A stretch of 64,000 nt of DNA from an uncultured Erysipelotrichaceae bacterium (GTDB taxonomy: Bacteria; Bacillota_I; Bacilli_A; RFN20; CAG-826). Within the stretch, counting starts at the first letter, position 1. Each line of letters starts with the position of its first letter. The notes beneath the pieces were generated by a model. That model made no database searches and was not told the DNA's origin. It worked only from the letters and a program-made list of their open reading frames with translations. The DNA lies in the NCBI GenBank assembly GCA_902802355.1, contig CADCLU010000002.1, positions 27,573-91,572 on the forward strand. Direction: 5' to 3'. Shown here piece after piece: positions 2,486 through 50,366 of the stretch. Position numbers and translations under genes: made by a program.

Positions 2486-3094
2486 CTATTTTTCGGCTTG
2501 TTTTTTGCGTTTTTCGAGCTCGATGTTGTTGTTGTATATGGCGATCAGTCTTGGAAGGTTGTACTTCAAGATGAATGCAGGAAGAACAATCAAGATGGCG
2601 TTTACGATGGCGACTGGGAGGGCAATCGTTAACCAGAGGTTTGATTCCCCAGTGTACATCCTCCAGTCACAGAGGATGATGAGGAAGGAAGCGGGAACAC
2701 TATAGAAGTGAATGGCGACTCCATATCTCGCCTCCAAGATGAAGCGGGAGATGTATTCGTTGTCGAATGGGGTCGCGACCTTGTTCTTATGGAATCCGGT
2801 GAAATTACCGAGCTCAGGAACGAAGTCCTTCCACTTATGCACTTTGAGGAAGCGGTAGAACTTAAGTTCTCTCTCGCTGGTTTTGAATATTCCTTTGTCT
2901 TGTTGGAACCATCTCTCAGGCATTTTCCTGATAACAATGGCCACGATGGCATCCACGATGACGGCCACAACCGTGAAACCAAGGGTGAAAAGGATATAGA
3001 CCCACCACCCATCTTGGTAAAGAGGGTTAAAGAAAATGTTCAAAGCGGAGACAAGGGCAACGCCAACGAAGATGGTGATGAGATATAGAACCAT
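2486..3094 (-). CDS. polytopic membrane protein, function unknown (possibly CrtO-like acyltransferase family)
   Basis: 202-aa ORF with several TM helices and a KVHKWKDFVPELG motif. Its start abuts the stop of the upstream gene. Confidence 0.6.
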   Translation of the reverse strand: MVLYLITIFVGVALVSALNIFFNPLYQDGWWVYILFTLGFTVVAVIVDAIVAIVIRKMPERWFQQDKGIFKTSERELKFYRFLKVHKWKDFVPELGNFTGFHKNKVATPFDNEYISRFILEARYGVAIHFYSVPASFLIILCDWRMYTGESNLWLTIALPVAIVNAILIVLPAFILKYNLPRLIAIYNNNIELEKRKKQAEK

Positions 3095-4917
3095 TATTCT
3101 TCCTCTTTGGTGAGATAGGTCAAAGGCTCTCCATAGGTCTTCTCATAGACCTCTTTCCAGCGTTTCTCGTTCTCTCTAAGCATATGGGCGACATTCTCTT
3201 GTTGGCTTAAGGAATCATCTGGATAGATCGGTTCCATGATGTGCATGGTATAGGCCTGAACGTAAGCGCCCGATTCCTCGGTCTTTTCAGTATCACGCAT
3301 GGTGATGAAGGTTGGGATGACTGGGACGTTATTCTTCGCAGCGAAGATGAAAGCGCCTGGCTTCAAAGGTTTTGGTTTGCGGTAGTTCCACCACATCGAC
3401 TGCTCTGGGTAGATGAGGATGAAATTGCCTTTCTTGAGGATGGTGTCGACGGACTTGAGGAAATCCCTCATGACGGTTGGGTTCATCGCCAAAGGAAGGG
3501 TGTTACAGTTTCTTAAGAAGTAACCATAAAGGCCAGGCATCGTGTAGTTGCCTTCCCTGATGATCTTGAAGAGCTTCTTGCATCTAGCGTGTTTCTTGAC
3601 CGCGAGATGGATCGGGATGCTATCGAATGGGGAGAAATGGTTGGCGGTGATGATGGCGCCTCCCTTGACGGCTTTAAGATTCTCAATGCCCTCATAGCCA
3701 TCGATGACGATATGGCCTTTCTTGATGAGGTGCTTGAAGTAAAGGTAGGAATAGTAATTGGCCCACCAGGTCTTGAATTTGCTCGACCATTTTCTTCTCA
3801 AATAGTCGACGTCTCCTGGCATAAGGCGGCGGAATGGCGGATCGTTTTCGACATCGATATCGAATTTGCCTTCTCTTTCGAGCTCAGCGATCTTGTCGAC
3901 GATCTCCTGTCTTTCTTTGGTGAGCTTAGGAACGTTGACCTTGCCCTGTCTGACTTTCATCTCGATGGTCTCGAAGCGTTCTTTCTTCGGGGTGCCAGTC
4001 ATCTTCTCGTGGTACTCTTCGGCTTTCTCGGCTTCTTGGTTGCAGAAAGCCTTAACTCCGTCGACGCCTTTGAGGATGTTCGCGACCACTTCAGCAGGGA
4101 TGGCGTCCCTGTTCTTGATAATCTGCTCTTTGACCCCTGCTTCTTCGGCGTATTTGAAGAAGAGCTCCTCATACATGATGTTGGTGAGGTTCCATGGCTT
4201 GAACATGAGGTTGTAATGGACGAGGAATGGATCGTTGATCTTCTCGCCTAAAGGCATGACGTTCCATCTCTTGTCGATGTATTTGACCTGGTCTTTGCAA
4301 AGGTAATTCAAAACATCCTGGTCTTGAGCGACTTTGAAGGTGACTCTGTTGATGAGATTGATGAAGCGTCTTTCAAGATTGAACTGCCTGAGCTTCTTGA
4401 GGTCCATCAAAAGGATGCCGGCGTTGAAGTATTTGGCGTGATCGATCTCTAAGACTTTCTCAACATAGTTGGAGAATTCGCTGAAAAGCTGGACGGAGGC
4501 ATCTGGTATAGCGCCTACGAGATTGTCCTCCAAATCGGTGAAATAGAGTTTGGCGACGTCTTCGTTAAGGACGATGTCGCTGTCGAGGTATAAGCATTTG
4601 CTTAAAGTTGGGAAGAGGGATGGGATGAATAGACGATAGTAGGTCGTGATTGTGTAGTAGTCACGGACGTCTAATTTGACGGATAAAGAGTTGACCTTGA
4701 TGTTGACGTTAAAGAACGAGATGAAGATCTTCTCGTTGTCCTGGTATTTGCGGATCATCCTTTTGCTTTCCATAGAAAGACCGTCATGAAGGATGGTTAA
4801 ACGGTATTTGTATTCGCTAGAAGCGTGGGCCACGATACTGGCGATTGTTGTTGAAAGAAACGGTATATAGTTATCATCAACGGTGAAGAAGAGATGAACG
4901 ACTTTTTTCCTGACCAT
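3094..4917 (-). CDS. fusion protein: N-terminal GT8 glycosyltransferase + C-terminal lysophospholipid (PlsC-type) acyltransferase
   Basis: N-terminal half: VHLFFTVDDNY, YYRLFIPSLFP and the DxD motif LYLDSDIVL (GT8). C-terminal half: ITANHFSPFD (HxxxxD) and IYPEQSMW/PGAFIFA blocks (AGPAT/LPLAT). Confidence 0.7.
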   Translation of the reverse strand: MVRKKVVHLFFTVDDNYIPFLSTTIASIVAHASSEYKYRLTILHDGLSMESKRMIRKYQDNEKIFISFFNVNIKVNSLSVKLDVRDYYTITTYYRLFIPSLFPTLSKCLYLDSDIVLNEDVAKLYFTDLEDNLVGAIPDASVQLFSEFSNYVEKVLEIDHAKYFNAGILLMDLKKLRQFNLERRFINLINRVTFKVAQDQDVLNYLCKDQVKYIDKRWNVMPLGEKINDPFLVHYNLMFKPWNLTNIMYEELFFKYAEEAGVKEQIIKNRDAIPAEVVANILKGVDGVKAFCNQEAEKAEEYHEKMTGTPKKERFETIEMKVRQGKVNVPKLTKERQEIVDKIAELEREGKFDIDVENDPPFRRLMPGDVDYLRRKWSSKFKTWWANYYSYLYFKHLIKKGHIVIDGYEGIENLKAVKGGAIITANHFSPFDSIPIHLAVKKHARCKKLFKIIREGNYTMPGLYGYFLRNCNTLPLAMNPTVMRDFLKSVDTILKKGNFILIYPEQSMWWNYRKPKPLKPGAFIFAAKNNVPVIPTFITMRDTEKTEESGAYVQAYTMHIMEPIYPDDSLSQQENVAHMLRENEKRWKEVYEKTYGEPLTYLTKEEE

Positions 4918-5003
4918 GGTGAGAAATCTCCTAAAATCCCAACAATGATAACAAAGAAATACCCAAAAGTAATTCTATTTATATAGAATTTCTTTCAATT
5001 CAC

Positions 5004-5034
5004 AAAAAAAGACCAATGGAGCTGGCCATTGGTC
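5004..5034 (-). terminator. rho-independent terminator
   Basis: 9-bp stem gaccaatgg/ccattggtc with a 7-nt T-run on the minus strand after the 5077-6744 gene. Confidence 0.7.
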
Positions 5035-5076
5035 ATGTGAAGTTTTTACAAAATCCTTTACAAATCCTTAATGGAA

Positions 5077-6744
5077 TTAGGCTTTCATGACGTCTAAGGT
5101 GTCGAAGAGTTTAACTTCATCATCGTTGACGGTATAGACGTGATAGGAGAGAGTGTTCTCTTTGAGGGTAAGGACACCGAACATCGCGGCGTTGACGTTG
5201 CCTGTAGCAGGATCCCCTATTTCGTAACGCTGATCGGAAGTATGGCCGTTAACTGTGTATGGCTCATACTCGTTGTCCTGGGTCAAAGTACCGAGGACGG
5301 TCTTGTACTTATTGTTAACGAAGGTGTTGTTTGGGTCTAAGCCTTTCATCTCGCCGTCTTCGACAACACACTCGGCCCAGATGCCGTCTTCTGCTTCTCT
5401 GGCACCGTGACGATGTCCAGCAGCGCCGGTGATGACGTAATAGGTGCCGTTAGGGTTCTTATCGTAAGACACCTCACCCACTGTCTTCTTTGCAGGATCA
5501 AGATTGACGACGGTATTGTCATCGAAGGAGGTTGTGTAGCCTGCGGCATCCCAGCGATATGGCAAGGTTTTGCTGTATGTATGGTCATGGGCCTCAAGGA
5601 CGAGGTCGACATGCTTCTCGGAGAAGATTGGGGCTAAAGTCTCAATGATGGTGTGGGTTTCACTCTTATTGCTATGGTCGCCAGTCGTGTATGGGGAGTG
5701 ATGGATCATGACCACTTTCCATTTGGCGTTGGCGGCATTGTCCAAATCCTCTTTGAGCCAATCAAGCTGAGCGGTGCTGCTTCTGATGGTGTTGCTATCG
5801 AGGATGATGAAGTGAGCGTACTCATAATCGTATGAGTAATAGCAACCTTCTTTGGTGAAACCGGCATAATCGATATCACTCATGATGTACTGGGAATAGG
5901 CGGCACTTGGCTCGTGGTTGCCAGCGCTCGTCATATAAGCGAGGTTGATCTTGTAATCGTTGATGACGTCGAGGGCTTTGACATAAGCCTGAAGTCTTTG
6001 TGGTTTGCTTGGGCTAATGCCAGAAACGGTCCTCATATTCTGGTCGAACTGGTCGCCGTTATATAAGACCATGTCGAGATCATTGCCGGCTGTATCGACG
6101 GCTTTGGTGAAGGTATTGCGCCAAACATTGAGCTTATCTGGCTCGATGGTTTGGGCGTCGCTAAGCTCGATGGCGGTTATGGAAGATGGGTGTTCTTTCT
6201 CCACCACAAACGCACCGTAGTAATAATGGTCAGGCGCGCCGACTTTATAGCTATAGGCTTTGCCTTTCTCGAGATTCTCGACGTGAACCTTATGGGAATT
6301 GAGAGTGAGCTCCATGCTGCTGCTAGAGCCTTTTCCATCGGGGATATCGCTATCGGTGAAGGAGACGGTTCCATTGGTCTTGGAGACGAATTCCTGAGTG
6401 ACGCCACTAATAAGTTCGGCGCCAGAGAAATCTGCCTGCTCCCCTTTATCCGATTTCACAAGATAAAGCTCAGTCTCTTCGACGGTGTTATCGGTGAGCC
6501 AGGAGAAGCCGCGGGAATAGACGCCGTTATAGTAAGTAAGGTTGAATCCCTTTGGATCTTGGCCAATGTCATAGGTCAAAAAATCCCCATCAAATTCCGG
6601 ACGGACGATGTTGTAGGTTTCTTCTTCTGAGCTCGCCGGAGCCACGCTGGAAGCAGTGGCTTCAAGGTAACAGCCCGCAAGCAAAACGCAGGCACAGGAA
6701 AGAACGACCTCAAAATTGATTAATCTAATCTTTTTGTTTCTCAT
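5077..6744 (-). CDS. secreted lipoprotein, calcineurin-like metallophosphoesterase (purple-acid-phosphatase-like)
   Basis: Lipobox LLAGC. Metallophosphoesterase motifs GDQFD, SAGNHE, MIHHSPY and EAHDHTY. Confidence 0.75.
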   Translation of the reverse strand: MRNKKIRLINFEVVLSCACVLLAGCYLEATASSVAPASSEEETYNIVRPEFDGDFLTYDIGQDPKGFNLTYYNGVYSRGFSWLTDNTVEETELYLVKSDKGEQADFSGAELISGVTQEFVSKTNGTVSFTDSDIPDGKGSSSSMELTLNSHKVHVENLEKGKAYSYKVGAPDHYYYGAFVVEKEHPSSITAIELSDAQTIEPDKLNVWRNTFTKAVDTAGNDLDMVLYNGDQFDQNMRTVSGISPSKPQRLQAYVKALDVINDYKINLAYMTSAGNHEPSAAYSQYIMSDIDYAGFTKEGCYYSYDYEYAHFIILDSNTIRSSTAQLDWLKEDLDNAANAKWKVVMIHHSPYTTGDHSNKSETHTIIETLAPIFSEKHVDLVLEAHDHTYSKTLPYRWDAAGYTTSFDDNTVVNLDPAKKTVGEVSYDKNPNGTYYVITGAAGHRHGAREAEDGIWAECVVEDGEMKGLDPNNTFVNNKYKTVLGTLTQDNEYEPYTVNGHTSDQRYEIGDPATGNVNAAMFGVLTLKENTLSYHVYTVNDDEVKLFDTLDVMKA

Positions 6745-6842
6745 AAAACCCCTTCTTTGAGAAATATTAGTTTATGAAAACTAGTTTAGTTATTGGGCCT
6801 AATAACTTCAATATGGTGCGCGACAAAAAGCCCCTGCAAAAC

Positions 6843-6860
6843 AAAAAGACCCGAAGGTCT
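6843..6860 (-). terminator. terminator after tRNA-Trp
   Basis: Short stem agacc/ggtct, loop cgaa, then TTTTTGTTTT on the minus strand. Confidence 0.5.
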
Positions 6861-6872
6861 TTCGTTCTGTTT

Positions 6873-6946
6873 TGGCAGGGGCGGAAGGAATCGAACCCTC
6901 ATCAAAGGTTTTGGAGACCTCTGTTCTACCACTGAACCACGCCCCT
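6873..6946 (-). tRNA. tRNA-Trp (anticodon CCA)
   Basis: Cloverleaf AGGGGCG..., anticodon loop CTCCAAA, T-loop GGTTCGATTCC, encoded CCA end. Confidence 0.9.
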
Positions 6947-6968
6947 AGGGCCTTTTCAGGCGAGTGGT

Positions 6969-6997
6969 ATTATAACCCTTATAAAAGTTGGCTACAA
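6969..6997 (-). promoter_or_regulatory. sigma-70 type promoter for tRNA-Trp
   Basis: On the minus strand: TTGTAG, 17 nt, TATAAT. It lies 22 nt upstream of the tRNA 5' end. Confidence 0.6.
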
Positions 6998-7010
6998 GGA
7001 GCAAAAGGGC

Positions 7011-8717
7011 TTATTCCATCGAAGGACGGGCTTTTTTGGATTTGAGCCTCATATCCCTGATTGGATCGATGATGAATCTCCAAAGAGCGAAGATGATAGG
7101 AAGAATCTCTAAACGTCCGAAGAACATGGCCATCGTCTCGACCCAGATGAAGCCATTGTAGGCGAGTGGGTGGGCGGCTTTATATCCGACATAATCCATC
7201 ATGGACATGCCTTCCGAGGTGAATCCGTTCATGAATTCATAGAAGCAGCGCTGGAACCATTCTGCCTGGTTGAGTCCTGGGAGAGGAGGTAAGAACATCA
7301 AGGTCATTCCTCCCACTACCGCGACGATTAAGACGAGAAGGGTGTAGTTTCTCGCTTCTTTAACTGAAGCTTCATCAACTTCTTTGAGGACGCCTAAACG
7401 CCTGACGACGCGAGGAGAGATGGTTCTATCTGAGGTGTCATGATATCTAAGGAACCAATAGAATTCCTTGCCAAGGATGCCGATACGGTACTGCTTGATG
7501 CCGCCTGCGGTCGAACCCATTCCACCGCCGATGGTCATGAAGACCCAGCCAAGGAAGAAGCAAACCGGACCAAGCTTAAGGATGGATGGGAAGTTCGCAA
7601 ATCCTGAGGTGGTGAGGGACGTGATGGTGAAATAAGTGCCATATCTCAGGGAGGAAAGGAAATCGAGTCCTTCGCCTTCGTTATAGAGATATGTCATCGA
7701 GAGAGAACAGATAAGTATGCCGACGACGAGGAGAGCGCCAGTCAAGACGATCTCGATGTCACAGAAGAAGTCTTTGAGTTTGCCTCTTAGGGCAAAGGTG
7801 TGAAGGACAAGGCTAGTCGCACCAGCAAGCATAAGGACGCAGGTGATGATCTCGATGCCAATGCTATTAGTTACCGTATAGGAGAGGTTGTTGATCTCAC
7901 CAAGCGGCATATTCTGGCAGAAGAAATAGATGGACTCCGCTCTCGTGGAGAAGCCTCCTGTTCCTAAACAGCTCATAGACGTGCATACCGCTTCAAAAGG
8001 AGGCATGCCAGCGAGCCAGAGGCTCAAAGAGCCTGCAGCGACCCATCCGGCATAGACGAGGAAGATGATCTTCGCGGATTTGGCTAAGTTAGGGACGATC
8101 TGGTCATTATGGCCTTCAGCGAAGTAGAGTTTGAAGTTCTGCCTGCTTGCGATGATCGAAGTAAGAAGAAGGACAAGACCGACGCCTCCGATGAACTGCA
8201 TGAAGGCACGGTGGAAAAGGAAGACGTGGGAATAGCCATAGGCGGAGCAGGAATCCACTCCTAACGGGCTACTTGCAACGCCATCGAGATAAGCGCTCTT
8301 TGGGAAAAGGGTGAGACCGGTGGTCGTGAATCCTGAGGTTGCTTCAAAGAAGCACTCAGAAAAGGACATGTTGAGATTGGCGGAGGCATCTCCGAAGTTG
8401 AGCCAGGAGAATCTCGTCAAGAAGAACGGCATCGCACCAGAAAGGATGGCGCCGATCCAGATAAGGACAAGAAGGACCGCGTCTTCTTTCGGACGGAAAC
8501 GCAGTTTCTCTCTTCCTGCTACGAGGAGTTTATAGAGAAGGACGCCGACTCCGATATCGATAACGGCAGGGACGATGAAGTCGAGAAGGACCTTCCACTC
8601 ACCTGGATAGAAGATGAGGGTGAGCAAAGGGAAAAGAACGACGATTCCCTCGAATGCGAGGAAAAGGCCAAGATAACCGAATACGAGTCGGAATCCCTTT
8701 GCCGGTTCTTTCTTCAT
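7011..8717 (-). CDS. TrkH/KtrB-family potassium uptake membrane protein
   Basis: 568-aa polytopic protein with repeated pore-loop-like TTTG/TGGF/TSGF segments typical of TrkH. It sits adjacent to TrkA-domain genes. Confidence 0.75.
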   Translation of the reverse strand: MKKEPAKGFRLVFGYLGLFLAFEGIVVLFPLLTLIFYPGEWKVLLDFIVPAVIDIGVGVLLYKLLVAGREKLRFRPKEDAVLLVLIWIGAILSGAMPFFLTRFSWLNFGDASANLNMSFSECFFEATSGFTTTGLTLFPKSAYLDGVASSPLGVDSCSAYGYSHVFLFHRAFMQFIGGVGLVLLLTSIIASRQNFKLYFAEGHNDQIVPNLAKSAKIIFLVYAGWVAAGSLSLWLAGMPPFEAVCTSMSCLGTGGFSTRAESIYFFCQNMPLGEINNLSYTVTNSIGIEIITCVLMLAGATSLVLHTFALRGKLKDFFCDIEIVLTGALLVVGILICSLSMTYLYNEGEGLDFLSSLRYGTYFTITSLTTSGFANFPSILKLGPVCFFLGWVFMTIGGGMGSTAGGIKQYRIGILGKEFYWFLRYHDTSDRTISPRVVRRLGVLKEVDEASVKEARNYTLLVLIVAVVGGMTLMFLPPLPGLNQAEWFQRCFYEFMNGFTSEGMSMMDYVGYKAAHPLAYNGFIWVETMAMFFGRLEILPIIFALWRFIIDPIRDMRLKSKKARPSME

Positions 8718-42545: not shown

Positions 42546-43370
42546 TTACTTGTACATTAACCAAATCTCAGTGATGTTGAGATTGTAGGACTCTAAACGG
42601 GTGTAGGTGAGCTTGAAGTCGCCAGCGGCGATGGAAGCCATGGTGCCCATTTCGCAGAGGCAGAAGGAGCTGTTGCCGTTCTCGCCAGCGGTCATGCCCA
42701 TTTCTTCATAGGTCTTGGTGTTGGTGATGGTGAGATCAGTATCGTTGACCTTAACTCCGACGTTGGCGCTGCCATCTCCGGCTTTGGTGGAGAAGAAGCC
42801 TCTCTGGTCGTTGTTGTTGCTGCCATCTTTCCAGTAGTCGACCCAGCCATAGACGCCGATGGTGACGTTGGTTAAGGCAGTTGGCATGTTGAATTCATAC
42901 TCAGCGTAGTTGCCGTTGGTGCTGAACTTGAGGGTGGCACCGGTGTTATCCTTGTTGGAGCCTTCGATCTTAGTCCAATCCAAAGCATCGATGATGATGG
43001 CTTTGGTGTGGCAGACGGAACACTCATTGGTCCAGTAACCGGTCTTGCCTTCGGCTTCGACCTTTTCGCTTCTGGTTCCCCAGGTATGTGGGGTCTTGGC
43101 GATGACGGTCTCTTTGACGCTGCCTAAGCTGCTGTTGATGCAGACTTCGACGTCCTTGCCTTCGTGTTCGCAGTTGGCGTCAACGTGCTGGGAGGCGTCT
43201 TTTGACCAGATGGCAGAGAATTTGCTGGTCGAGGATTTTTTGGAGGAGGCAGCCTTGCTGGTGCTGGCGGAAGCGTCGGCGGTTGATTCGCCGGCCTCTG
43301 GTCCACCACAGCTGGCAAGCATCATGCTGCCAAGCATCGCGGAGGCCAAAAGAATTTTTGAAACTTTCAT
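42546..43370 (-). CDS. lipoprotein with Ser-rich linker and Cys-containing beta-sandwich-like domain
   Basis: Signal MKVSKILLASAMLGSMMLASC, linker ASASTSKAASSKKSSTSK. Confidence 0.6.
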   Translation of the reverse strand: MKVSKILLASAMLGSMMLASCGGPEAGESTADASASTSKAASSKKSSTSKFSAIWSKDASQHVDANCEHEGKDVEVCINSSLGSVKETVIAKTPHTWGTRSEKVEAEGKTGYWTNECSVCHTKAIIIDALDWTKIEGSNKDNTGATLKFSTNGNYAEYEFNMPTALTNVTIGVYGWVDYWKDGSNNNDQRGFFSTKAGDGSANVGVKVNDTDLTITNTKTYEEMGMTAGENGNSSFCLCEMGTMASIAAGDFKLTYTRLESYNLNITEIWLMYK

Positions 43371-43617
43371 GTTTAACCTTTCTCGAAGCTATTGCTTCAT
43401 AAAAAAACACATAAATCGAGATTTCTGGCGAATATTCGGCTTATATGTATAGGATTATTGTAAATCAATATTACCCCATTTCAAGGAAATGCCTATTACC
43501 AAGTCCCGACAATTATGTGTTTTTCGTCCAAAAGTAATCTTTAAAATCGAAATAGCCTCTTTTTGTTTGGAGGGAAATTAAGGTAAAATAAATTTACATT
43601 CAGAAAGGTTTGAATAT

Positions 43618-44124
43618 ATGCAAGTCAGCATCAGGAACAAATGGATTTCTTTGCGCGGTGGCTCAACCGTCAAAGATATGAACGAGAAGGACGTTCTTTA
43701 CGTCAAAGGCAAATTCTTCACCTTCACGAGAAAGAAATTCGTTCAGGATATGAGCGGAAATCTCCTCTACACCGTCAGAAACAAATTCTGGACGTTCTTC
43801 GTCAGAAAAGCCCTTGTCTACGATAAGGATGGCAACCAGGTCGCCTTCATGAAGAAGAAATTCTGGTCTTTCCATGACCACTACTTCATCGACACCAAGC
43901 TCGGCCAGATTGAAATCAGAGGCAACATCCTCTGCTTCGACTACCACATCTCCCTTAAAGGTAAGGAAATCGGACATGTCTCGAGAAAAATCTCCTTGAG
44001 AGATTCCTTCGTCCTCAGCCTTGATGACGAATACGATAAGGAGCTTCCATTCTTCGTCGCTCTCGTCATCGCGATCGACAACATCACCGACCAGAGAAGA
44101 GACGACAACTCAAATAACTATTAA
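43618..44124 (+). CDS. LURP-one-related/DUF567 (YxjI-like, tubby-fold) protein
   Basis: 168 aa with repeated beta-hairpin pattern KFFTFTRKKF...NKFWTFF...KKFWSFHDHY. Confidence 0.65.
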   Translation: MQVSIRNKWISLRGGSTVKDMNEKDVLYVKGKFFTFTRKKFVQDMSGNLLYTVRNKFWTFFVRKALVYDKDGNQVAFMKKKFWSFHDHYFIDTKLGQIEIRGNILCFDYHISLKGKEIGHVSRKISLRDSFVLSLDDEYDKELPFFVALVIAIDNITDQRRDDNSNNY

Positions 44125-44134
44125 GCTTAAGCAA

Positions 44135-44165
44135 AAGAAAAACCGGGTTTGTCCCGGTTTTTTTG
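44135..44165. terminator. bidirectional terminator between convergent genes
   Basis: Stem aaccggg/cccggtt, loop tttgt, flanked by an A-run and a T-run. Confidence 0.7.
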
Positions 44166-45515
44166 TTATTCCTTTTTCTCCTTTTCGTAGAAGAGCGCGA
44201 TCCTTCTTAGATAGGCATTTTCTCTCTTGTCCTTGCTGACGTCATCAAGATAAGCCTTCATTGAATTGAGGTTATGCTTCTGGTCAAGCGAATCCATGTA
44301 GTGATAGTAATCGATGATGGCCAGATAGTATTCCATGAAGAAGGTGTTCTGGATCTGGGTGTCGATGATGCCTTCGAAGTTCTTCTTGAGCTTGGACCTT
44401 TCTTTGTAGGTCTTCTTAAGCCATTCCTTGGCCTCTTCTTTATTGCCTAAGAAATCATTGGAGACGTAAAGGTTCCTATAGATATAGGCTCTGATGAGGG
44501 AATCGAGTCCGATGGCATCTGCGTTGTCATCCTTCTTGCCCGAACTCTCAAGCACCTCGAGGTTCTCAAGGGTCTTGTGGGAGTATTCGATTGCTCTTTT
44601 GTGCAGCCCCGTCCTGTCTTCATTATCAAGGCTTTCGTTGTTGGCAAGAAGCATGTAGGCGAAGGAATAATGGTTGTAGATATAAGTCCTCATCCACTGC
44701 GAGAAATAATCATCTACTTCTGGGTCTTCGAGTTCGAGGTCATCGAAAATCTGCCTATAGCTTTCCCTGAACTCGCAGAAGGTGTCCTCGTCGATGTAGA
44801 CGTTTGAGGTCTCTGGATAGGATTTGATCTCACTTGTGAGTTTGAAGAAAGAGAGACACATCTTGACTGAGCATCTGAGTTCTAGCGAGAACTCGGTGTT
44901 ATGCTCACGATGGAACTTCTCGATTTCCTTTTGGACCTTCTTCTCGTCCTCGAACATGTGGGCGGCTTGCATATAGAAGATGATGTATTGGGCAAGCTCA
45001 TAGTCGGAGCACTTTGAGCCAGCGCTCGAATAATGGGAAGCGATTTTCTCTTTGATCTGATAACGGTTGTCGATGAGGGTCATCTTCTCCTCAGGAATCG
45101 ACATCTTCTGTCTCTTGAGGAAGTAATCGACGATGCCTCTTGCGAAGGCCTCATCATCACCAGATGCGATAGGCTCGACGAAGGAGCTATCGAAGTCGGA
45201 TGGGAGGACGATCTTCTCTTCCCTCTTCTTGACGCAGTGGATTTTCCTCGTGCCATATCTAGCAAGGACGTAGCCGAGCTCAAAGAAGACGTTGTTGCTC
45301 ACATTGCCGTCGGCCTTGTTCTGGAAGATGACGATGGCTTGGTTGCAGCTTTTGATCTGCTGGATGATCGTGTCCCCTACAGACGAATACTGGGAGTCGT
45401 TGTCGCTGTTTCCGCCTATATAGCAGATGTAGTCGTGCTCGTTATCGAGTATCTCTTTGACTTTCTCGGCGACTGATCTTGTTCCGCTCCAGGCGATGAA
45501 TACCTTTCCTCTCAT
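44166..45515 (-). CDS. TIR-like (COG4271/Cap12-type) nucleotide-binding domain fused to alpha-helical TPR-like domain
   Basis: N-terminal ~130 aa: KVFIAWSG..., GDTIIQQI..., AIVIFQNKADG, NNVFFELGYVLARYG, VLPSDF. The C-terminal ~300 aa are helical and repeat-like. Confidence 0.6.
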   Translation of the reverse strand: MRGKVFIAWSGTRSVAEKVKEILDNEHDYICYIGGNSDNDSQYSSVGDTIIQQIKSCNQAIVIFQNKADGNVSNNVFFELGYVLARYGTRKIHCVKKREEKIVLPSDFDSSFVEPIASGDDEAFARGIVDYFLKRQKMSIPEEKMTLIDNRYQIKEKIASHYSSAGSKCSDYELAQYIIFYMQAAHMFEDEKKVQKEIEKFHREHNTEFSLELRCSVKMCLSFFKLTSEIKSYPETSNVYIDEDTFCEFRESYRQIFDDLELEDPEVDDYFSQWMRTYIYNHYSFAYMLLANNESLDNEDRTGLHKRAIEYSHKTLENLEVLESSGKKDDNADAIGLDSLIRAYIYRNLYVSNDFLGNKEEAKEWLKKTYKERSKLKKNFEGIIDTQIQNTFFMEYYLAIIDYYHYMDSLDQKHNLNSMKAYLDDVSKDKRENAYLRRIALFYEKEKKE

Positions 45516-45524
45516 GGTGTTACC

Positions 45525-46169
45525 TCACTTTAGATTTTCTATGTCGTCTATTTTTTCCTGAATCTTGTTGATGAGCCTCGCGGAATGAACACCATCCACT
45601 AAGGCGTGGTGTCCGGCGACATCGAAGGCCATTTCGTATTTATCGCCCTTAAGAACATACTTGCCCCAAGTGACCCTTGGGATGCTCGTTTGCTCTTTGT
45701 CGGTGAAGTTATATGGGTTATTCATTGAGGTGAAATCGATCCACTGGAGGCTAGAGACGAAAATCCTATCGATTCTCTTAATCGATTCGAAGCCTTCGGA
45801 TTCCTCGTGTCTCGCTCTTTCGATGTCGGCTTTCGCCATTCTGTGGAACATTTCGTAGTCGGAGATAGACTCACTCAAGCAGGTGACGAGCTCATCATCC
45901 TCTTTGAGAACGATATAGCTTGGATGGACTTTATCAAAGATAACGACCTCATCGTCTTTGATTCTCATCCTCCACTCAGGAATCTCGTTCATGGCCTCGC
46001 TCATGATGTAGAGGAGAGTCACGAAGAAGGATTTCTTGTTCTCTTTGCAGAATTTGACGAGTTTGGTGACATCAAGCCTCACGGTGACCGAAAAGATTGG
46101 GTTCGTGTATTTGATGAAGTTCTCGTATTGGGCTCTTCTCGCCCAGTTCTTGATATCGATTTTTTCCAT
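45525..46169 (-). CDS. chloramphenicol-acetyltransferase-family (type A CAT-like) acetyltransferase
   Basis: 214 aa. C-terminal catalytic block AGHHALVDGVHSARL (compare the HHAVCDG signature). Confidence 0.75.
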   Translation of the reverse strand: MEKIDIKNWARRAQYENFIKYTNPIFSVTVRLDVTKLVKFCKENKKSFFVTLLYIMSEAMNEIPEWRMRIKDDEVVIFDKVHPSYIVLKEDDELVTCLSESISDYEMFHRMAKADIERARHEESEGFESIKRIDRIFVSSLQWIDFTSMNNPYNFTDKEQTSIPRVTWGKYVLKGDKYEMAFDVAGHHALVDGVHSARLINKIQEKIDDIENLK

Positions 46170-46170
46170 G

Positions 46171-46836
46171 TTACTTGATGATTTCCTTTAGACCTCTGAG
46201 GTCATTAATGATGCGAGCGTGTTCTTTCGCGAATTCGTTTGGTGGGATGAGGTCCACTGCCATGACTGGGATGAAACCACCTCTCACTGCCGCTTCGATG
46301 CCGTTGATTGAATCTTCGACAACGATAGAGCTTGAAGGATCTTCGCCAAGCTTCTTCGCTGCTTCTAAGAACATATATGGGTCAGGTTTTGATTTGCCTA
46401 GAGCGTCTTCCGCGTAGATAGCCTCGTCAAAAACCCCTGCAATTTCCATCTCTTTTAGTTTGAAGAGCATCTCTGCTCTCGCTTTATGGGAGGAAGTCGC
46501 TAAAGCGGTCTTGATACCTTTACCCTTAAGGAATTCGATCGTTTCCTTAAAGAAAGGCTTAATCTCAAAGTCGCCCACGCTGATATCGTGGTTGACGCTT
46601 TCGAGCATGAAGTCACGGTAGGCATCTACGTCAAGAGCTGGGCGATGGACTCTAAGCTCATCGCGGACAAGCTTCTCGTTCTTACCGCACATCCCTTGGC
46701 GATACTCTTCGCCGATTTCGACCTCGAATTTTTTGTTAGCCGCCAAAAAGGCCTTCTTCCAAAGGCTTTCGGTATCGAAGATGACGCCATCCATATCGAA
46801 AATGACGGCGGTTATCTTTTTGGCTTCTTTAATCAC
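46171..46836 (-). CDS. HAD-superfamily hydrolase (beta-phosphoglucomutase-like subfamily IA)
   Basis: AVIFDMDGVIFDTE (DxDG), ATSS, KSKPDP and VEDSINGIEAA motifs. Confidence 0.8.
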   Translation of the reverse strand: MIKEAKKITAVIFDMDGVIFDTESLWKKAFLAANKKFEVEIGEEYRQGMCGKNEKLVRDELRVHRPALDVDAYRDFMLESVNHDISVGDFEIKPFFKETIEFLKGKGIKTALATSSHKARAEMLFKLKEMEIAGVFDEAIYAEDALGKSKPDPYMFLEAAKKLGEDPSSSIVVEDSINGIEAAVRGGFIPVMAVDLIPPNEFAKEHARIINDLRGLKEIIK

Positions 46837-46890
46837 TTTCTTGACCTTTCCGTTTGATTATATCAAAGGCACGTGGTTGCCGAGAAGAGT

Positions 46891-48555
46891 CTAGATATTG
46901 GCCTCGCTGAGAGCGGAGAGAAAACCGGTGTAGCAAGGTTTCTTCTCGTATTCGCTTGTGAAGAGAAGAGGATACTGGTTCCGTTTCCAGGATTGATCAT
47001 CGGTGACGCCCCAAAGGATGACGGCATTGATGTCGGTCTCTTCAGCAGCGTTATTCTCAAGGACCTTCTTCATGAGGGTCTTGTAGGCTTTGCTCTGGTT
47101 GTCGTATTCACTTTGGCTCGTGCCGTTGATGGTGATATCGATCTCAGTGAGCTGGCACTTCAAGCCTTTCTGTTTGATGAGCTTGGCATCGTTGATGATG
47201 TTGTCCATGTTGGCGTTCGAATCAAGGTGGGTCTGGAGACCTACTCCATCGATAAGACCTTCGGTGATGGCATCAGCAAGGAAGCCATTGAGGGCCCAGT
47301 TACACCAAGTTGGCTGATAGTCGAAGGCGAAGTCGTTGTAATAGAGCTCTTGCCATTCGGCTTTGTATTTGGAGGCGTATTTGAAAGCGTAGTAGACGTA
47401 ATCTTCACCAACGGTTGAATACCAGTTGTTGTTATTGGTTCTGTAACCGCCGTTCTCGACCGCTTCGTTAGCGACGTCGACGGCATAGACGAGCTCAGGC
47501 CATCTCTCATTGATGGTGTCGAGGGTAACTTGGATGAAATTCTCCATTCTCTCAAGCATGAGAGCGCGGTCGGCTTTAGGACCATTCTGGGTGTAGTCGG
47601 TCGTGAAGAACCAGGCTGGGGTTTGGGAATACCAAACGAAGGTGTGATGTCTCACTCCGATGTTATTCTCAGCGGCCCAATCATAGATTCTCTCAAATGG
47701 CTTTGTGGTGATGGCAACCCCTGCTGGATCTTTAGCAAGAAGAGCCTGGCAAGCCTCTTGGTCGAGGATTCGTTCAGGTTTTCCTTCGTTTTCCGCGGTG
47801 ATGGAATTGAAGTTATCGATGGTGATCTTTCTGACTTCGGTGTTTCTCACCATCGTGTCGGACATACAGGTTCCGATTTTGAAATGGTCCTCATATGTCG
47901 TGTAGAGGGATTCGTCATTGGCAACGTATTTGGTCGTCACTGTTTCTTCACCATAGGTGATCTCAATATCATCGAGGAGGATCGTTCCTGCTTTGCTAGC
48001 ATCGGTGAGGGTGTAATTAAGTCTAAGTGAACCGAGCATATCGAGGGTGTCATAGGTCATCTCGATCGCGTTCCATGTGTCCTCTTCGTCAGAGGTAATG
48101 GTGATGGCTTCACCTTTGACGGTTGCGGCACGGCCATTCCACGGGACCGCTTCTAATTGGATGGTCTTGATGTTCGAATTGGCAGGGATGTAGCAATAAA
48201 GGGAAATGATATCGCCGTTCTTGGCGTCTTCGTCTTTGAAGTATGGCTCCTTGATGAGGTCGCTTCCGATATAGCCGTCTTTCGTGAGGCTACATGAAAG
48301 ACAATAAGTGTCATCCATTCCTTCGTCTTCAAGGATCGTGACGGAACCTGAGCCTTCCTGAGCGCCTAAAGGAGCTTTCTCATAGTCCTCTGGCGATGTC
48401 CACATCCTGACGGTGTCGCCAACCTCAAGGGGTTTGCTTTCTTCCGGTTCTTGGCTCTGGTTGGTCGATTTGCGCGGAGTGGTATTGCAACCCGCTAAGG
48501 TCGCAAGGGCAAATAGAGGCATGGTCGCCATCAAAAAAGGAGTCTTTCTTTTCAT
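46891..48555 (-). CDS. lipoprotein endo-1,4-beta-xylanase (GH10) with N-terminal CBM-like domain
   Basis: Lipobox LAGC. GH10 blocks HHTFVWYSQTP, VDVANEAV (acid/base) and LTEIDIT (nucleophile). Confidence 0.8.
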   Translation of the reverse strand: MKRKTPFLMATMPLFALATLAGCNTTPRKSTNQSQEPEESKPLEVGDTVRMWTSPEDYEKAPLGAQEGSGSVTILEDEGMDDTYCLSCSLTKDGYIGSDLIKEPYFKDEDAKNGDIISLYCYIPANSNIKTIQLEAVPWNGRAATVKGEAITITSDEEDTWNAIEMTYDTLDMLGSLRLNYTLTDASKAGTILLDDIEITYGEETVTTKYVANDESLYTTYEDHFKIGTCMSDTMVRNTEVRKITIDNFNSITAENEGKPERILDQEACQALLAKDPAGVAITTKPFERIYDWAAENNIGVRHHTFVWYSQTPAWFFTTDYTQNGPKADRALMLERMENFIQVTLDTINERWPELVYAVDVANEAVENGGYRTNNNNWYSTVGEDYVYYAFKYASKYKAEWQELYYNDFAFDYQPTWCNWALNGFLADAITEGLIDGVGLQTHLDSNANMDNIINDAKLIKQKGLKCQLTEIDITINGTSQSEYDNQSKAYKTLMKKVLENNAAEETDINAVILWGVTDDQSWKRNQYPLLFTSEYEKKPCYTGFLSALSEANI

Positions 48556-48656
48556 AATCTTTCCTCGATTAAGAATATTTTACGGACGAATGTGCGCGAA
48601 AGGAAGAAATAAGCGCATATGAAAGGGTTCACTGAGAGGCTATAATTTCCCTAACA

Positions 48657-49892
48657 ATGAGGAAAATCAAAAGGATTGATGTCCATATGAAGCCGAAGAG
48701 GATTCTTTTCCTCTTCTCTTTCATTATCAGGACCGCAGCCTATTTCGCCAGGAAGAAAGAAAAGGCGACGATCAAGAAGATCGGCAAGATGCCAAAGCCT
48801 CCATATATCCTTTTGTCGAACCACTCCTCCTTCATGGATATCTATCTCGGTCTAGGAGCGACAAGCCCAAGAAGAAGCTACTGGGTTTGCGCGGCAGAGG
48901 AATTCATCGACAAGTATTTCGTCTGCGTCCACTCAGGCATCATGCCAAAAAGAAGGTTCGTGAATGACCCCGCAAGCATCATTCCGATGATGGACGTCCT
49001 CAAAAAGAAGAAAAAGATCCTCGTCATGTATCCTGAGGCCGTCTATTCCTTCGTTGGGAAACCTCTAAGGATCGACGAAGGACTTGGCAAACTCGTCAAA
49101 TACATGAAGGTCCCTGTTGTGTTCCTTAACTGCCATGGATCTTATCTCCGTCAGCCTCAATGGAGCGACCAAGTCGTGAGGAATGTCCCAATCGTTGCGG
49201 AGATGGAATGCGTCATCCCAAAAAGTGAAATTGAGGGGCTTTCTGCTGATGATATTCAGAAAACGATAAGGAATTGCTTCAATTCCGACGAAGAGGAATA
49301 TCAACTACAAAACCACATCAAAATCGATTATCCGAATAGAGCGGAAGGCCTTGAGAGGATCCTTTATCAGTGCCCCCACTGCGGCAAAGAATTCCATATG
49401 TCCTCTAAGGGAGACACTCTCTCCTGTGATGAGTGTGGCACCAAGTATCGTTTGAATGAGGACGGCACTTTGTCTTGCGTTAACGGAGAAACTAAATTCA
49501 CCAAGATCAGTAATTGGTTCGAATGGGAGAAAGCTAACGTCGAGAAAGAAGTCAGAGATGGAACCTATCACTTCGAAGACGATATCAGGATGGAGAAGAT
49601 GGAAGGAGTTAAGGTTGGCTTCGTTCCTCTAGAAGGAGAACACCACCTCACTCATGACATCGATAACGGAATCATCGTCAAAGGGCCAGAGGGCATTGTC
49701 TTCCATCGAGAACCGCTTCAGAGCTTTGGCCTCCATATCGATTACGACTATCACCAAAAAGGCGCGATGGTTGACCTCTCATCCCCTGACGAAACATATT
49801 TTGCCTATCTTCTAAGCAAAGAAAAATGGCTGACCAAAATCAGATTTGCGGTTGAAACAATTTATGACATGAGAAAAGCCAAAAAAAGATAA
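48657..49892 (+). CDS. lysophospholipid acyltransferase-family protein with zinc ribbon and extra C-terminal domain
   Basis: LSNHSSFMD (HxxxxD), VMYPEAVYS, CPHCG...CDECG. Confidence 0.65.
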   Translation: MRKIKRIDVHMKPKRILFLFSFIIRTAAYFARKKEKATIKKIGKMPKPPYILLSNHSSFMDIYLGLGATSPRRSYWVCAAEEFIDKYFVCVHSGIMPKRRFVNDPASIIPMMDVLKKKKKILVMYPEAVYSFVGKPLRIDEGLGKLVKYMKVPVVFLNCHGSYLRQPQWSDQVVRNVPIVAEMECVIPKSEIEGLSADDIQKTIRNCFNSDEEEYQLQNHIKIDYPNRAEGLERILYQCPHCGKEFHMSSKGDTLSCDECGTKYRLNEDGTLSCVNGETKFTKISNWFEWEKANVEKEVRDGTYHFEDDIRMEKMEGVKVGFVPLEGEHHLTHDIDNGIIVKGPEGIVFHREPLQSFGLHIDYDYHQKGAMVDLSSPDETYFAYLLSKEKWLTKIRFAVETIYDMRKAKKR

Positions 49893-49958
49893 CAAATAAA
49901 CGGGAAAGAACTCAAAACGTTGCAAAATAAAAAATTTTTATGAGGTAGTGTTGGTGTT

Positions 49959-50366
49959 TTAAAAGATTATCTCGTATTTTTCGATGAACCATCCATTATT
50001 CCTACCTTTGTAGATTCTTTTGTCGTTCCACATATATTTTGGATTAGACAACAACTTACACTGCATGGAGCGACATCGTTCATAACTCGTCTGTGGATCA
50101 AAGCGATAATGAAAGCACGTCCCGTCAGCATCTAAATACTCGTGATTAAGAATATATAAATATTTCTGTCGTTTCGTAATCGGAATGTCGAATTCCGTTA
50201 TCTCGGTCACCCATCCGTCTGCAAGCCATTTGGAAATGTCTTTCCTTGCGCGGGAAAGTTTGCGTGCGTTGGCCCAAACGGAATCACCAAGACGAATTTC
50301 AATTCTTTCGCCATCTTTTGGGTCGATACCTTCGAATAAAACCTCTTCAAGAAAAAACATTTTCAT
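49959..50366 (-). CDS. hypothetical protein (orphan, AT-rich context)
   Basis: 135-aa ORF flanked by AT-rich non-coding DNA. No recognisable motif. Confidence 0.4.
   Translation of the reverse strand: MKMFFLEEVLFEGIDPKDGERIEIRLGDSVWANARKLSRARKDISKWLADGWVTEITEFDIPITKRQKYLYILNHEYLDADGTCFHYRFDPQTSYERCRSMQCKLLSNPKYMWNDKRIYKGRNNGWFIEKYEIIF

Follow-up and report, generated by a model that had tools for sequence, protein, structure and literature searches.

The gene at positions 44166-45515 (minus strand) of a 64,000-nucleotide stretch of contig CADCLU010000002.1, from an uncultured Erysipelotrichaceae bacterium (the whole stretch is henceforth the window), encodes a 449-residue protein with a TIR-like head and a TPR-like helical C-terminal domain (henceforth TIR-TPR). 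We found that this gene is the last cistron of a conserved, accessory and selectively maintained 2.7-kb cassette, in which it follows a gene for a HAD phosphatase and one for a protein resembling chloramphenicol acetyltransferase (CAT), an arrangement that we regard as firmly established. An earlier note, made from the letters of the window alone, had described the gene as stand-alone and as a possible single-gene defence system. The open reading frame (ORF) it delimited does exist, on the minus strand, with an ATG start and a Shine-Dalgarno sequence (GAGG) 7 nt upstream, but its solitary status does not survive, given the tightly packed, conserved HAD and CAT partners and the gene fusions described below. 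The cassette and its boundaries comprise the following features:

46857-46865, minus strand: extended -10 promoter-like element TGATATAAT, a putative assignment read by eye, within the 54 nt that separate the xylanase stop from the HAD start
46171-46836, minus strand: HAD-IA phosphatase partner, 221 aa, GTG start (PF00702/PF13419; beta-PGM/YqaB/HxpB-like subfamily)
45525-46169, minus strand: CAT-family O-acetyltransferase-like partner, 214 aa (PF00302, 138 bits)
44166-45515, minus strand: TIR-TPR gene, 449 aa (ORF translation, PF10137, >255 full-length homologues)
45114-45515, minus strand: N-terminal TIR-like (PF10137) domain, predicted to be catalytic, residues 1-134 (Pfam, AlphaFold2 (AF2), Foldseek, invariant residues)
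44169-45113, minus strand: C-terminal helical TPR-like domain, residues 135-449, with the invariant block C169-Y177 (CSDYELAQY) and Y344, E395 and Y396 (AF2, Foldseek, profile search)
44136-44164, both strands: bidirectional intrinsic terminator with a 12-bp stem and T-runs on both strands (terminator scan), which ends the operon and is common to the convergent LURP-one-related (LOR) gene

TIR-TPR is encoded in a conserved HAD-CAT-TIR/TPR cassette

In the window, the three genes are separated by 1 nt (HAD-CAT) and 9 nt (CAT-TIR/TPR). A two-hexamer promoter scan called no promoter for the operon. The candidate element TGATATAAT lies 20 nt upstream of the HAD GTG start and within the segment that one congener (G154, see below) lacks at its empty site. 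Since a leader starting from it would be very short, co-transcription from the xylanase gene is an alternative.

Searches with TIR-TPR yielded more than 255 full-length homologues (counted as clusters at 90% identity, with 129 representatives at 50%), which are 445-455 residues long and 44-93% identical, their named sources being mostly metagenome-assembled genomes (MAGs) of gut and rumen Clostridia. In about 16 distinct lineages (42-56% identity to the window protein), the gene directly upstream on the same strand belongs to the CAT family and either overlaps the TIR-TPR gene or ends at most ~70 nt from it. HAD precedes CAT in at least eight lineages, and in one it lies downstream of the TIR-TPR gene. 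The association also holds when CAT is the starting point: the closest CAT homologues (40-56% identity) are mostly encoded on what appear to be the same contigs as TIR-TPR homologues, and all three CAT-first look-ups recovered the complete triad.

Two kinds of gene fusion tie the three genes together in the manner of a Rosetta stone. A 438-residue HAD-CAT fusion is encoded directly upstream of a TIR-TPR homologue (L055/L056), while a 661-residue TIR-TPR homologue (P0210) carries a HAD phosphatase domain at its C-terminus. Moreover, the pairwise distances among CAT proteins are correlated with those among their TIR-TPR partners (Mantel r 0.60, a value reached in 0 of 5000 permutations), which shows that both are inherited as a unit. 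We did not find the HAD/CAT/TIR-TPR partnership described in the literature searched, and a full-text search that combined TIR-like, chloramphenicol acetyltransferase and defense returned nothing.

The partner CAT contains the catalytic motif H187-H188-x3-D192-G193, which does not vary among the 15 partner CATs aligned and can be read in the C-terminal part of each of the 16 printed. It scores 147 bits against NF000491, the NCBIfam equivalog for CatA with a cutoff of 270, and is therefore not a bona fide CatA; it also falls below the cutoffs of the CatA-like families 1-3. A match of CAT to phrog_12857 was set aside, as the underlying tblastn matches (34% identity) are cat marker cassettes, several in engineered phages, and probably not biology.

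The cassette is a patchy but selectively maintained trait

The window genome measures 1.09 Mb and is 96.6% complete. A contig search with the single TIR-TPR protein revealed two near-identical rumen Bacilli loci, the nearest public relatives being sheep-rumen "Bacilli bacterium" MAGs, and the TIR-TPR family as a whole is spread over gut and rumen Clostridia and Bacilli. Within the same GTDB family, the gene is present in two of 151 genomes and in none of the five congeners of that sample. It is patchy rather than core, the outcome that the earlier note had associated with a defence gene. The other positive genome (G148) harbors a CAT-less copy (L002 1480-2850, identical in L041) that looks decayed: in-frame stops occur within the first ~25-30 codons, where the F6/W9/S10/G11 site would be expected, and a 404-residue ORF remains from residue ~44 onward.

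Extending the DNA search to 10 further congeners uncovered three informative states. One genome (G157) has the complete HAD-CAT-TIR/TPR block at 83% nucleotide identity to the window. A second (G152, L005 762-1510) has HAD alone, followed by a different terminator. The third (G154, L006 1440-1560) presents an exact empty site, in which the xylanase stop is followed by ~13 nt and then by the same terminator that ends the window operon; no flanking repeats are visible at this junction. Together, the full block, the HAD-only state and the empty site indicate that the 2.7-kb cassette is the unit of presence and absence. Comparison of G000 with G157 gave dN/dS values of 0.076 for TIR-TPR, 0.094 for CAT and 0.096 for HAD, next to 0.048 to 0.29 for the flanking genes at comparable dS. 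All three cassette genes are under strong purifying selection.

The TIR-like head resembles the NADase domain of SfSTING

The sequence blocks by which the earlier note recognized the head are all present: KVFIAWSG (residues 4-11), GDTIIQQI (47-54), AIVIFQ (60-65), NNVFFELGYVLARYG (74-88) and VLPSDF (103-108). The assignment is borne out by Pfam, in which PF10137 (CAP12-PCTIR_TIR; "CAP12/Pycsar effector protein, TIR domain") recognizes residues 4-109 with a score of 46.2 bits (E 5e-12), above the gathering score of 24.7 bits and spanning profile positions 1-110 of 119. PADLOC returned weak partial matches at residues 45-117 to PycTIR, CBASS TIR effectors and PDC-S35. We found no NCBIfam family and no PHROGs match for the protein, and sequence searches of the PDB with TIR-TPR or with its family profile gave nothing useful.

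An AF2 model built on 41 homologues (pLDDT 84.8, pTM 0.80) folds residues 1-120 into a beta/alpha domain with strands at 3-9, 29-33, 59-64, 92-97 and 113-116, and places E79 on the third helix, alphaC (residues 74-87). In Foldseek searches of the PDB, the best match to the head is the TIR domain of SfSTING, a TIR-STING effector of CBASS (7un8, 9lmq; 17-21% identity over ~170 columns, probability 1.0). The residues invariant in the 41 homologues are F6, W9, S10, G11, G34, G35, N36, N75, E79, G81, P105, D107 and D109. Across 52 more distant members, F6, W9, G34, G35, C57, N75, E79, G81, P105, D107, Y344 and Y396 are conserved in at least 90% and E395 is invariant.

In SfSTING, the nicotinamide stacks against F6, W33, F37 and L47, while S10, R78 and N80 bind the phosphodiester and ribose; the catalytic residue, E84, is located in alphaC, and D110 is contributed by the dimer mate (PMC9402430). 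Matched by position and motif, the counterparts of F6, S10, N80, E84 and D110 in TIR-TPR are F6, S10, N75, E79 and D107/D109, all invariant in the 41 homologues. N75 precedes E79 by four residues, as N80 precedes E84, and the P105-S-D107-F-D109 loop is invariant. The position of R78 is occupied by an invariant serine (S73), and W33, F37 and L47 have no clear counterparts in the family. This motif match supports the prediction that the head has an active N-glycosidase site of the CAP12/PycTIR (PF10137) type, with NAD+ or another nucleotide as the likely target and with E79, the invariant glutamate of alphaC, as its predicted catalytic residue. The PF10137 members characterized to date are immune NADases (Pfam description; PMC9402430), and proteins of the family can act as toxic NADases (10.64898/2026.04.30.722052). 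A nucleoside 2-deoxyribosyltransferase (NDT) head was also considered and rejected, as TIR-STING is the best fold and a single one of the 52 members matches PF05014, weakly; the alternative that the earlier note had itself raised, an NDT or flavodoxin-like domain lacking the TIR glutamate, thus does not describe this protein.

The helical domain is dedicated to the TIR-like head

Residues 121-448 are entirely helical in the AF2 model, and the closest Foldseek matches of this part in the PDB are TPR solenoids of the LGN/Pins type, albeit weak ones (E ~1e-3, TM 0.33-0.47). No Pfam TPR family matches TIR-TPR at E<=1, and TPR_1 matches one of 52 relatives; since no Pfam TPR model recognizes the domain, the term TPR-like refers to its fold. 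In that sense the earlier description of a TPR-like helical domain fused to a TIR-like head has held up.

A profile made from residues 135-449 of 20 loci and searched against 1.84 billion representative proteins recovered 129 representatives. Nearly every full-length match is 430-520 residues long, with the domain starting at ~135-180, and 48 of the 52 diverse members checked carry a PF10137 head. The helical domain therefore occurs almost only behind a PF10137-type head. Its best-conserved part in the 41-sequence set directly follows the head and comprises R135-Q-K, N150-R-Y and C169-S-D-Y-E-L-A-Q-Y177. We infer that the domain is no generic protein-binding TPR but helps to form a ligand or substrate pocket. 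One member of 640 residues (P0136) has an extra C-terminal domain, assigned by eye and probably an FCD domain (GntR-type ligand-binding). The family also has a neighbor of similar layout in one locus (L042, see below), a PF10137 protein with TPR repeats, but hhalign gave the two a probability of 3.5%, which is not significant.

CAT-less relatives occur beside both defence-type and metabolic genes

A second part of the family (38-45% identity) has no adjacent CAT, and at least eight such lineages keep intact genes. A TIR_2 protein and a HAD adjoin the TIR-TPR gene in one of them (L032), a TIR_2 protein and an IU-nucleoside hydrolase in another (L043), where the end of the hydrolase gene overlaps the start of the TIR-TPR gene, and an RyR-domain protein in a third (L040). 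More distant members neighbor a DHH phosphoesterase (L057), an MFS transporter with overlapping stop and start (L058) or an IU-nucleoside hydrolase (L059). These neighbors point two ways. TIR, RyR and SLATT partners are typical of nucleotide-centred conflict systems and match the Tir-Tpr and YpsA-Tpr assemblies of core-Tpr proteins discussed below. The transporter, the nucleoside hydrolases and the phosphatases, on the other hand, suggest a metabolism of nucleotides or xenobiotics.

Two loci deserve description in their own right. On one 56.7-kb contig, ~10 kb separates two paralogues, of which that of L044 is CAT-linked and that of L042 (region 2648-7042) is CAT-less. Downstream of the CAT-less copy come a different PF10137 protein of 482 residues, with canonical TPR_8 repeats, and a Sel1-repeat protein that contains an HExxH motif, in this order. 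The HAD-CAT fusion resides in an island (L055/L056 179-9620) that comprises an AAA+ protein with DUF6414, a DDE transposase, the fusion gene, the TIR-TPR gene, a 76-residue ThsB_TIR fragment and an 831-residue RyR and DUF4231 protein (faint Pfam match). The MAG carrying this island belongs to the archaeal Methanomethylophilaceae according to its NCBI source label alone.

Gene neighborhood and composition of the cassette

Pfam assigned the neighbors within 42546-50366 to a lipoprotein, LOR, CAT, HAD, GH10, an acyltransferase and an orphan gene. PADLOC found no match in this neighborhood. Neither a CD-NTase nor a pyrimidine cyclase is encoded in 42546-50366, and none was seen in ~25 homologous loci; judged by Pfam, the earlier note was thus literally right that the TIR-TPR gene has no cyclase, CD-NTase or ThsA-like neighbor. 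The GC content, third-position GC content (GC3) and codon usage of HAD, CAT and TIR-TPR are ordinary within the window, which gives no sign of recent transfer and argues that the cassette is not a recent arrival.

Two nearby genes complete the picture. The LOR gene (PF04525, 33 bits; 43618-44124, plus strand) converges on the operon and shares its terminator; it lies outside the cassette, because it is kept in congeners with or without it. A 274-residue lipoprotein (42546-43370, minus strand) has no family match, the highest GC3 of the neighborhood (z 2.2) and the weakest constraint relative to G157 (dN/dS 0.29).

A candidate ligand-gated conflict module and its alternatives

What might such a cassette do? 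We tentatively favor, with a confidence that stops short of an even chance, a ligand-gated immune conflict module of an anti-phage, abortive-infection-like kind. Here, the TIR-like head would cleave NAD+ or a related nucleotide, the most likely substrate class, using E79, with F6, S10, N75 and the D107/D109 loop completing the predicted active site by position as in SfSTING. The helical domain would form part of the ligand or substrate pocket and gate the activity, as in ThsI/BcTpr and TIR-STING. CAT and HAD would act on the same nucleotide-derived small molecule, either making or editing the activating ligand or removing the product. Such a ligand-gated glycosidase would deplete NAD+ or a nucleotide with no TIR, cyclase or CD-NTase as signal generator. 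This immune role is suggested by the CAT-less relatives beside TIR_2, RyR and a second PF10137 and TPR protein, by the island with the HAD-CAT fusion, and by the precedent of ThsI and BcTpr, which are anti-phage effectors combining a glycosidase with a TPR domain (10.64898/2025.12.03.692087; 10.1101/2023.05.26.542521). A bolder version, which we consider rather unlikely, would make the HAD-CAT pair a new signal-making or signal-editing module that produces or removes a nucleotide-derived ligand with an O-acetyl group, such as an acetylated ADP-ribose-like molecule. This ligand would gate TIR-TPR, and immune signalling based on acetylation would take the place of the TIR, cyclase and CD-NTase generators of Thoeris, Pycsar and CBASS.

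Several observations weigh against an immune module. No infection sensor has been identified for the cassette, and no whole-protein PADLOC model matches TIR-TPR. The setting in the window is metabolic (serA/serC, xylanase, LOR); about two of the 11 loci inspected look like defence islands, and most CAT-linked loci lie in metabolic neighborhoods. The partners themselves are of metabolic type (HAD, CAT, IU-nucleoside hydrolase, DHH phosphoesterase, MFS transporter). A mean column identity of 62% in the 41-sequence set is unusually high for an immune sensor. The correspondence with SfSTING was drawn by position and motif, not by residue-level superposition, and the likeness to ThsI/BcTpr is one of architecture. 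Finally, tblastn of the TIR-TPR protein against plasmid and phage collections, tblastn of a distant member (P0243) against plasmids and a search of IMG/VR with the family profile all returned no relatives; a mobile-element or phage-borne origin was dropped on these grounds.

Many of the same observations would suit a non-immune small-molecule pathway, which we consider a serious contender, though less likely than not. TIR-TPR would then be a TIR-like or MilB-like N-glycosidase acting on a nucleotide or nucleoside that is modified, toxic or scavenged; HAD would remove a phosphate, CAT would O-acetylate the substrate or product, and the helical domain would simply complete the substrate pocket. 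Horizontal transfer would have spread the cassette among gut and rumen anaerobes as a means of detoxification, resistance or salvage. Across the family, the partners are nucleotide or xenobiotic enzymes, the IU-nucleoside hydrolase recurring in two independent lineages (L043, L059), and contexts are mostly metabolic. The very high conservation and the housekeeping-like purifying selection fit such a pathway, as do the lack of obvious counterparts to the nicotinamide-stacking W33, F37 and L47 of SfSTING and, in our own reading, the resemblance of the invariant G34-G35-N36 loop to a phosphate-binding loop. A patchy spread suggestive of horizontal gene transfer suits resistance genes as well as defence genes, and the searches of plasmid, phage and viral collections turned up no relatives. 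On the other hand, the characterized PF10137 proteins are immune NADases, a regulatory-looking helical domain of 315 residues is unusual for a simple catabolic hydrolase, and some relatives are linked to TIR_2, RyR/SLATT or ThsB_TIR genes. CAT also scores far below a bona fide CatA, and no candidate substrate is known.

A toxin-antidote arrangement strikes us as quite unlikely. TIR-TPR would in this case be a constitutively dangerous NADase, as PF10137 proteins can be, or a producer of a toxic nucleotide, and CAT, together with HAD, would neutralize its product or activator in an addiction or abortive-infection module. The tight translational coupling with CAT always directly upstream, the co-inheritance of CAT and TIR-TPR, and the N-terminally broken state of the CAT-less copy in G148 fit such an arrangement, but the at least eight CAT-less lineages with intact genes do not. 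G152 retains HAD without CAT and TIR, so that HAD is not dependent on the cassette. No association with mobile elements or plasmids emerged from the plasmid, phage and IMG/VR searches, and we found no precedent in the literature for a CAT-type enzymatic antidote.

The proposal of the earlier note, in which an NADase encoded by a single gene serves defence or abortive infection and CAT and HAD are unrelated neighbors, is very unlikely and already contradicted for the CAT-linked clade. Homologues lacking CAT and HAD do exist, and an effector that brings its own putative sensor could work alone, as TIR-STING would without its cyclase, but CAT adjacency persists at 42-56% identity, each of three CAT-first look-ups gave the triad, both fusions join the partners, the gaps in the window are 1 nt and 9 nt, and the whole three-gene block is the unit of presence and absence in the genus. 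A core housekeeping enzyme of the flavodoxin-like or 2-deoxyribosyltransferase type is scarcely credible: composition and codon use do equal those of the rest of the window and purifying selection is strong, but the distribution contradicts it, as the gene is absent from 149 of the 151 family genomes searched and from most congeners, and the best fold is TIR-STING rather than NDT, with PF05014 touched weakly by one of 52 members.

If the immune role is true, a nucleotide signal or product would be acetylated and dephosphorylated, a small-molecule logic that is undescribed. If instead the role is metabolic, PF10137, a 'defence' family, includes a non-immune branch, a point of consequence for the automated annotation of defence systems. 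With its small size (2.7 kb) and clear predicted catalytic residues for mutation, the cassette is directly testable in laboratory strains.

Comparison with known systems

Cap12-type CBASS effectors (TIR-STING, TIR-SAVED) and PycTIR of Pycsar have a head of the same Pfam family, PF10137, as TIR-TPR. TIR-STING also has the same order of head and then sensor, and SfSTING is the best structural match of the N-terminal domain. Whereas these effectors carry a STING, SAVED or cNMP-binding domain, TIR-TPR has none of them, its C-terminal domain being a TPR-like solenoid. TIR-TPR is thus not a Cap12 or PycTIR member: PF10137 is its sole Pfam match, leaving no sensor domain of those kinds, and no cyclase or CD-NTase is adjacent.

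The partner acetyltransferase has the full-length PF00302 fold and the His-His...Asp-Gly motif in common with CatA and with the proteins that NCBI names 'CatA-like O-acetyltransferase'. It is ~34% identical to CatA1 and does not reach the CatA threshold. Unlike the CatA families, its subclade occurs almost only beside TIR-TPR genes.

Compared by architecture and description, the closest known analogue of TIR-TPR appears to be ThsI/BcTpr. BcTpr is said to belong to the 'core Tpr architecture' of Burroughs and Aravind from 2020. In type VIII Thoeris, the effector is ThsI, described as 'CMP hydrolase and TPR' and activated by cyclic ADP-ribose (cADPR) from its TIR partner (10.64898/2025.12.03.692087). 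In the BcTir/Tpr system of Bacillus cereus, the TPR residue D217 of BcTpr is modelled in the active site, and the TPR domain controls the product (10.1101/2023.05.26.542521). Like TIR-TPR, both proteins have an N-terminal Rossmann-like N-glycosidase followed by a C-terminal TPR-type domain, and at the level of architecture TIR-TPR has the N-glycosidase head and TPR domain expected of a type VIII Thoeris effector. The sizes are similar (415 residues for BcTpr/ThsI, 449 for TIR-TPR), and the Asn-x3-Glu pair N82/E86 of BcTpr parallels N75/E79. The heads differ in annotation, that of ThsI/BcTpr being 'CMP hydrolase' or MilB-like and that of TIR-TPR belonging to PF10137 (TIR clan), and a profile search from distant TIR-TPR members reached proteins of Treponema and Bifidobacteriaceae but not of Bacillus or Yersinia.

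The partners set the two apart further. Type VIII Thoeris needs an adjacent TIR protein (ThsB), and none lies beside TIR-TPR in the window or in the CAT-linked clade. Seven assemblies are listed for core Tpr, including "Tir-Tpr" and "YpsA-Tpr" but none with CAT or HAD (10.1101/2023.05.26.542521), and the word "acetyltransferase" does not occur in the type VIII Thoeris study and its supplements (10.64898/2025.12.03.692087). Core Tpr partner sets (TIR, YpsA/SLOG) recur beside the CAT-less relatives, with TIR_2 in L032 and L043 and RyR in L040. The 'undescribed architecture' of the earlier note is therefore not entirely so, a glycosidase and TPR effector being known in ThsI/BcTpr; the CAT and HAD partners lie outside the described sets. 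Effectors that join a TIR-type glycosidase to a TPR domain have but lately been recognized as anti-phage (ThsI/BcTpr) and there depend on a TIR signal generator, whereas TIR-TPR represents a large, strongly conserved and widespread family with a fixed acetyltransferase and phosphatase, linked to it through gene order, co-inheritance and two independent fusions.

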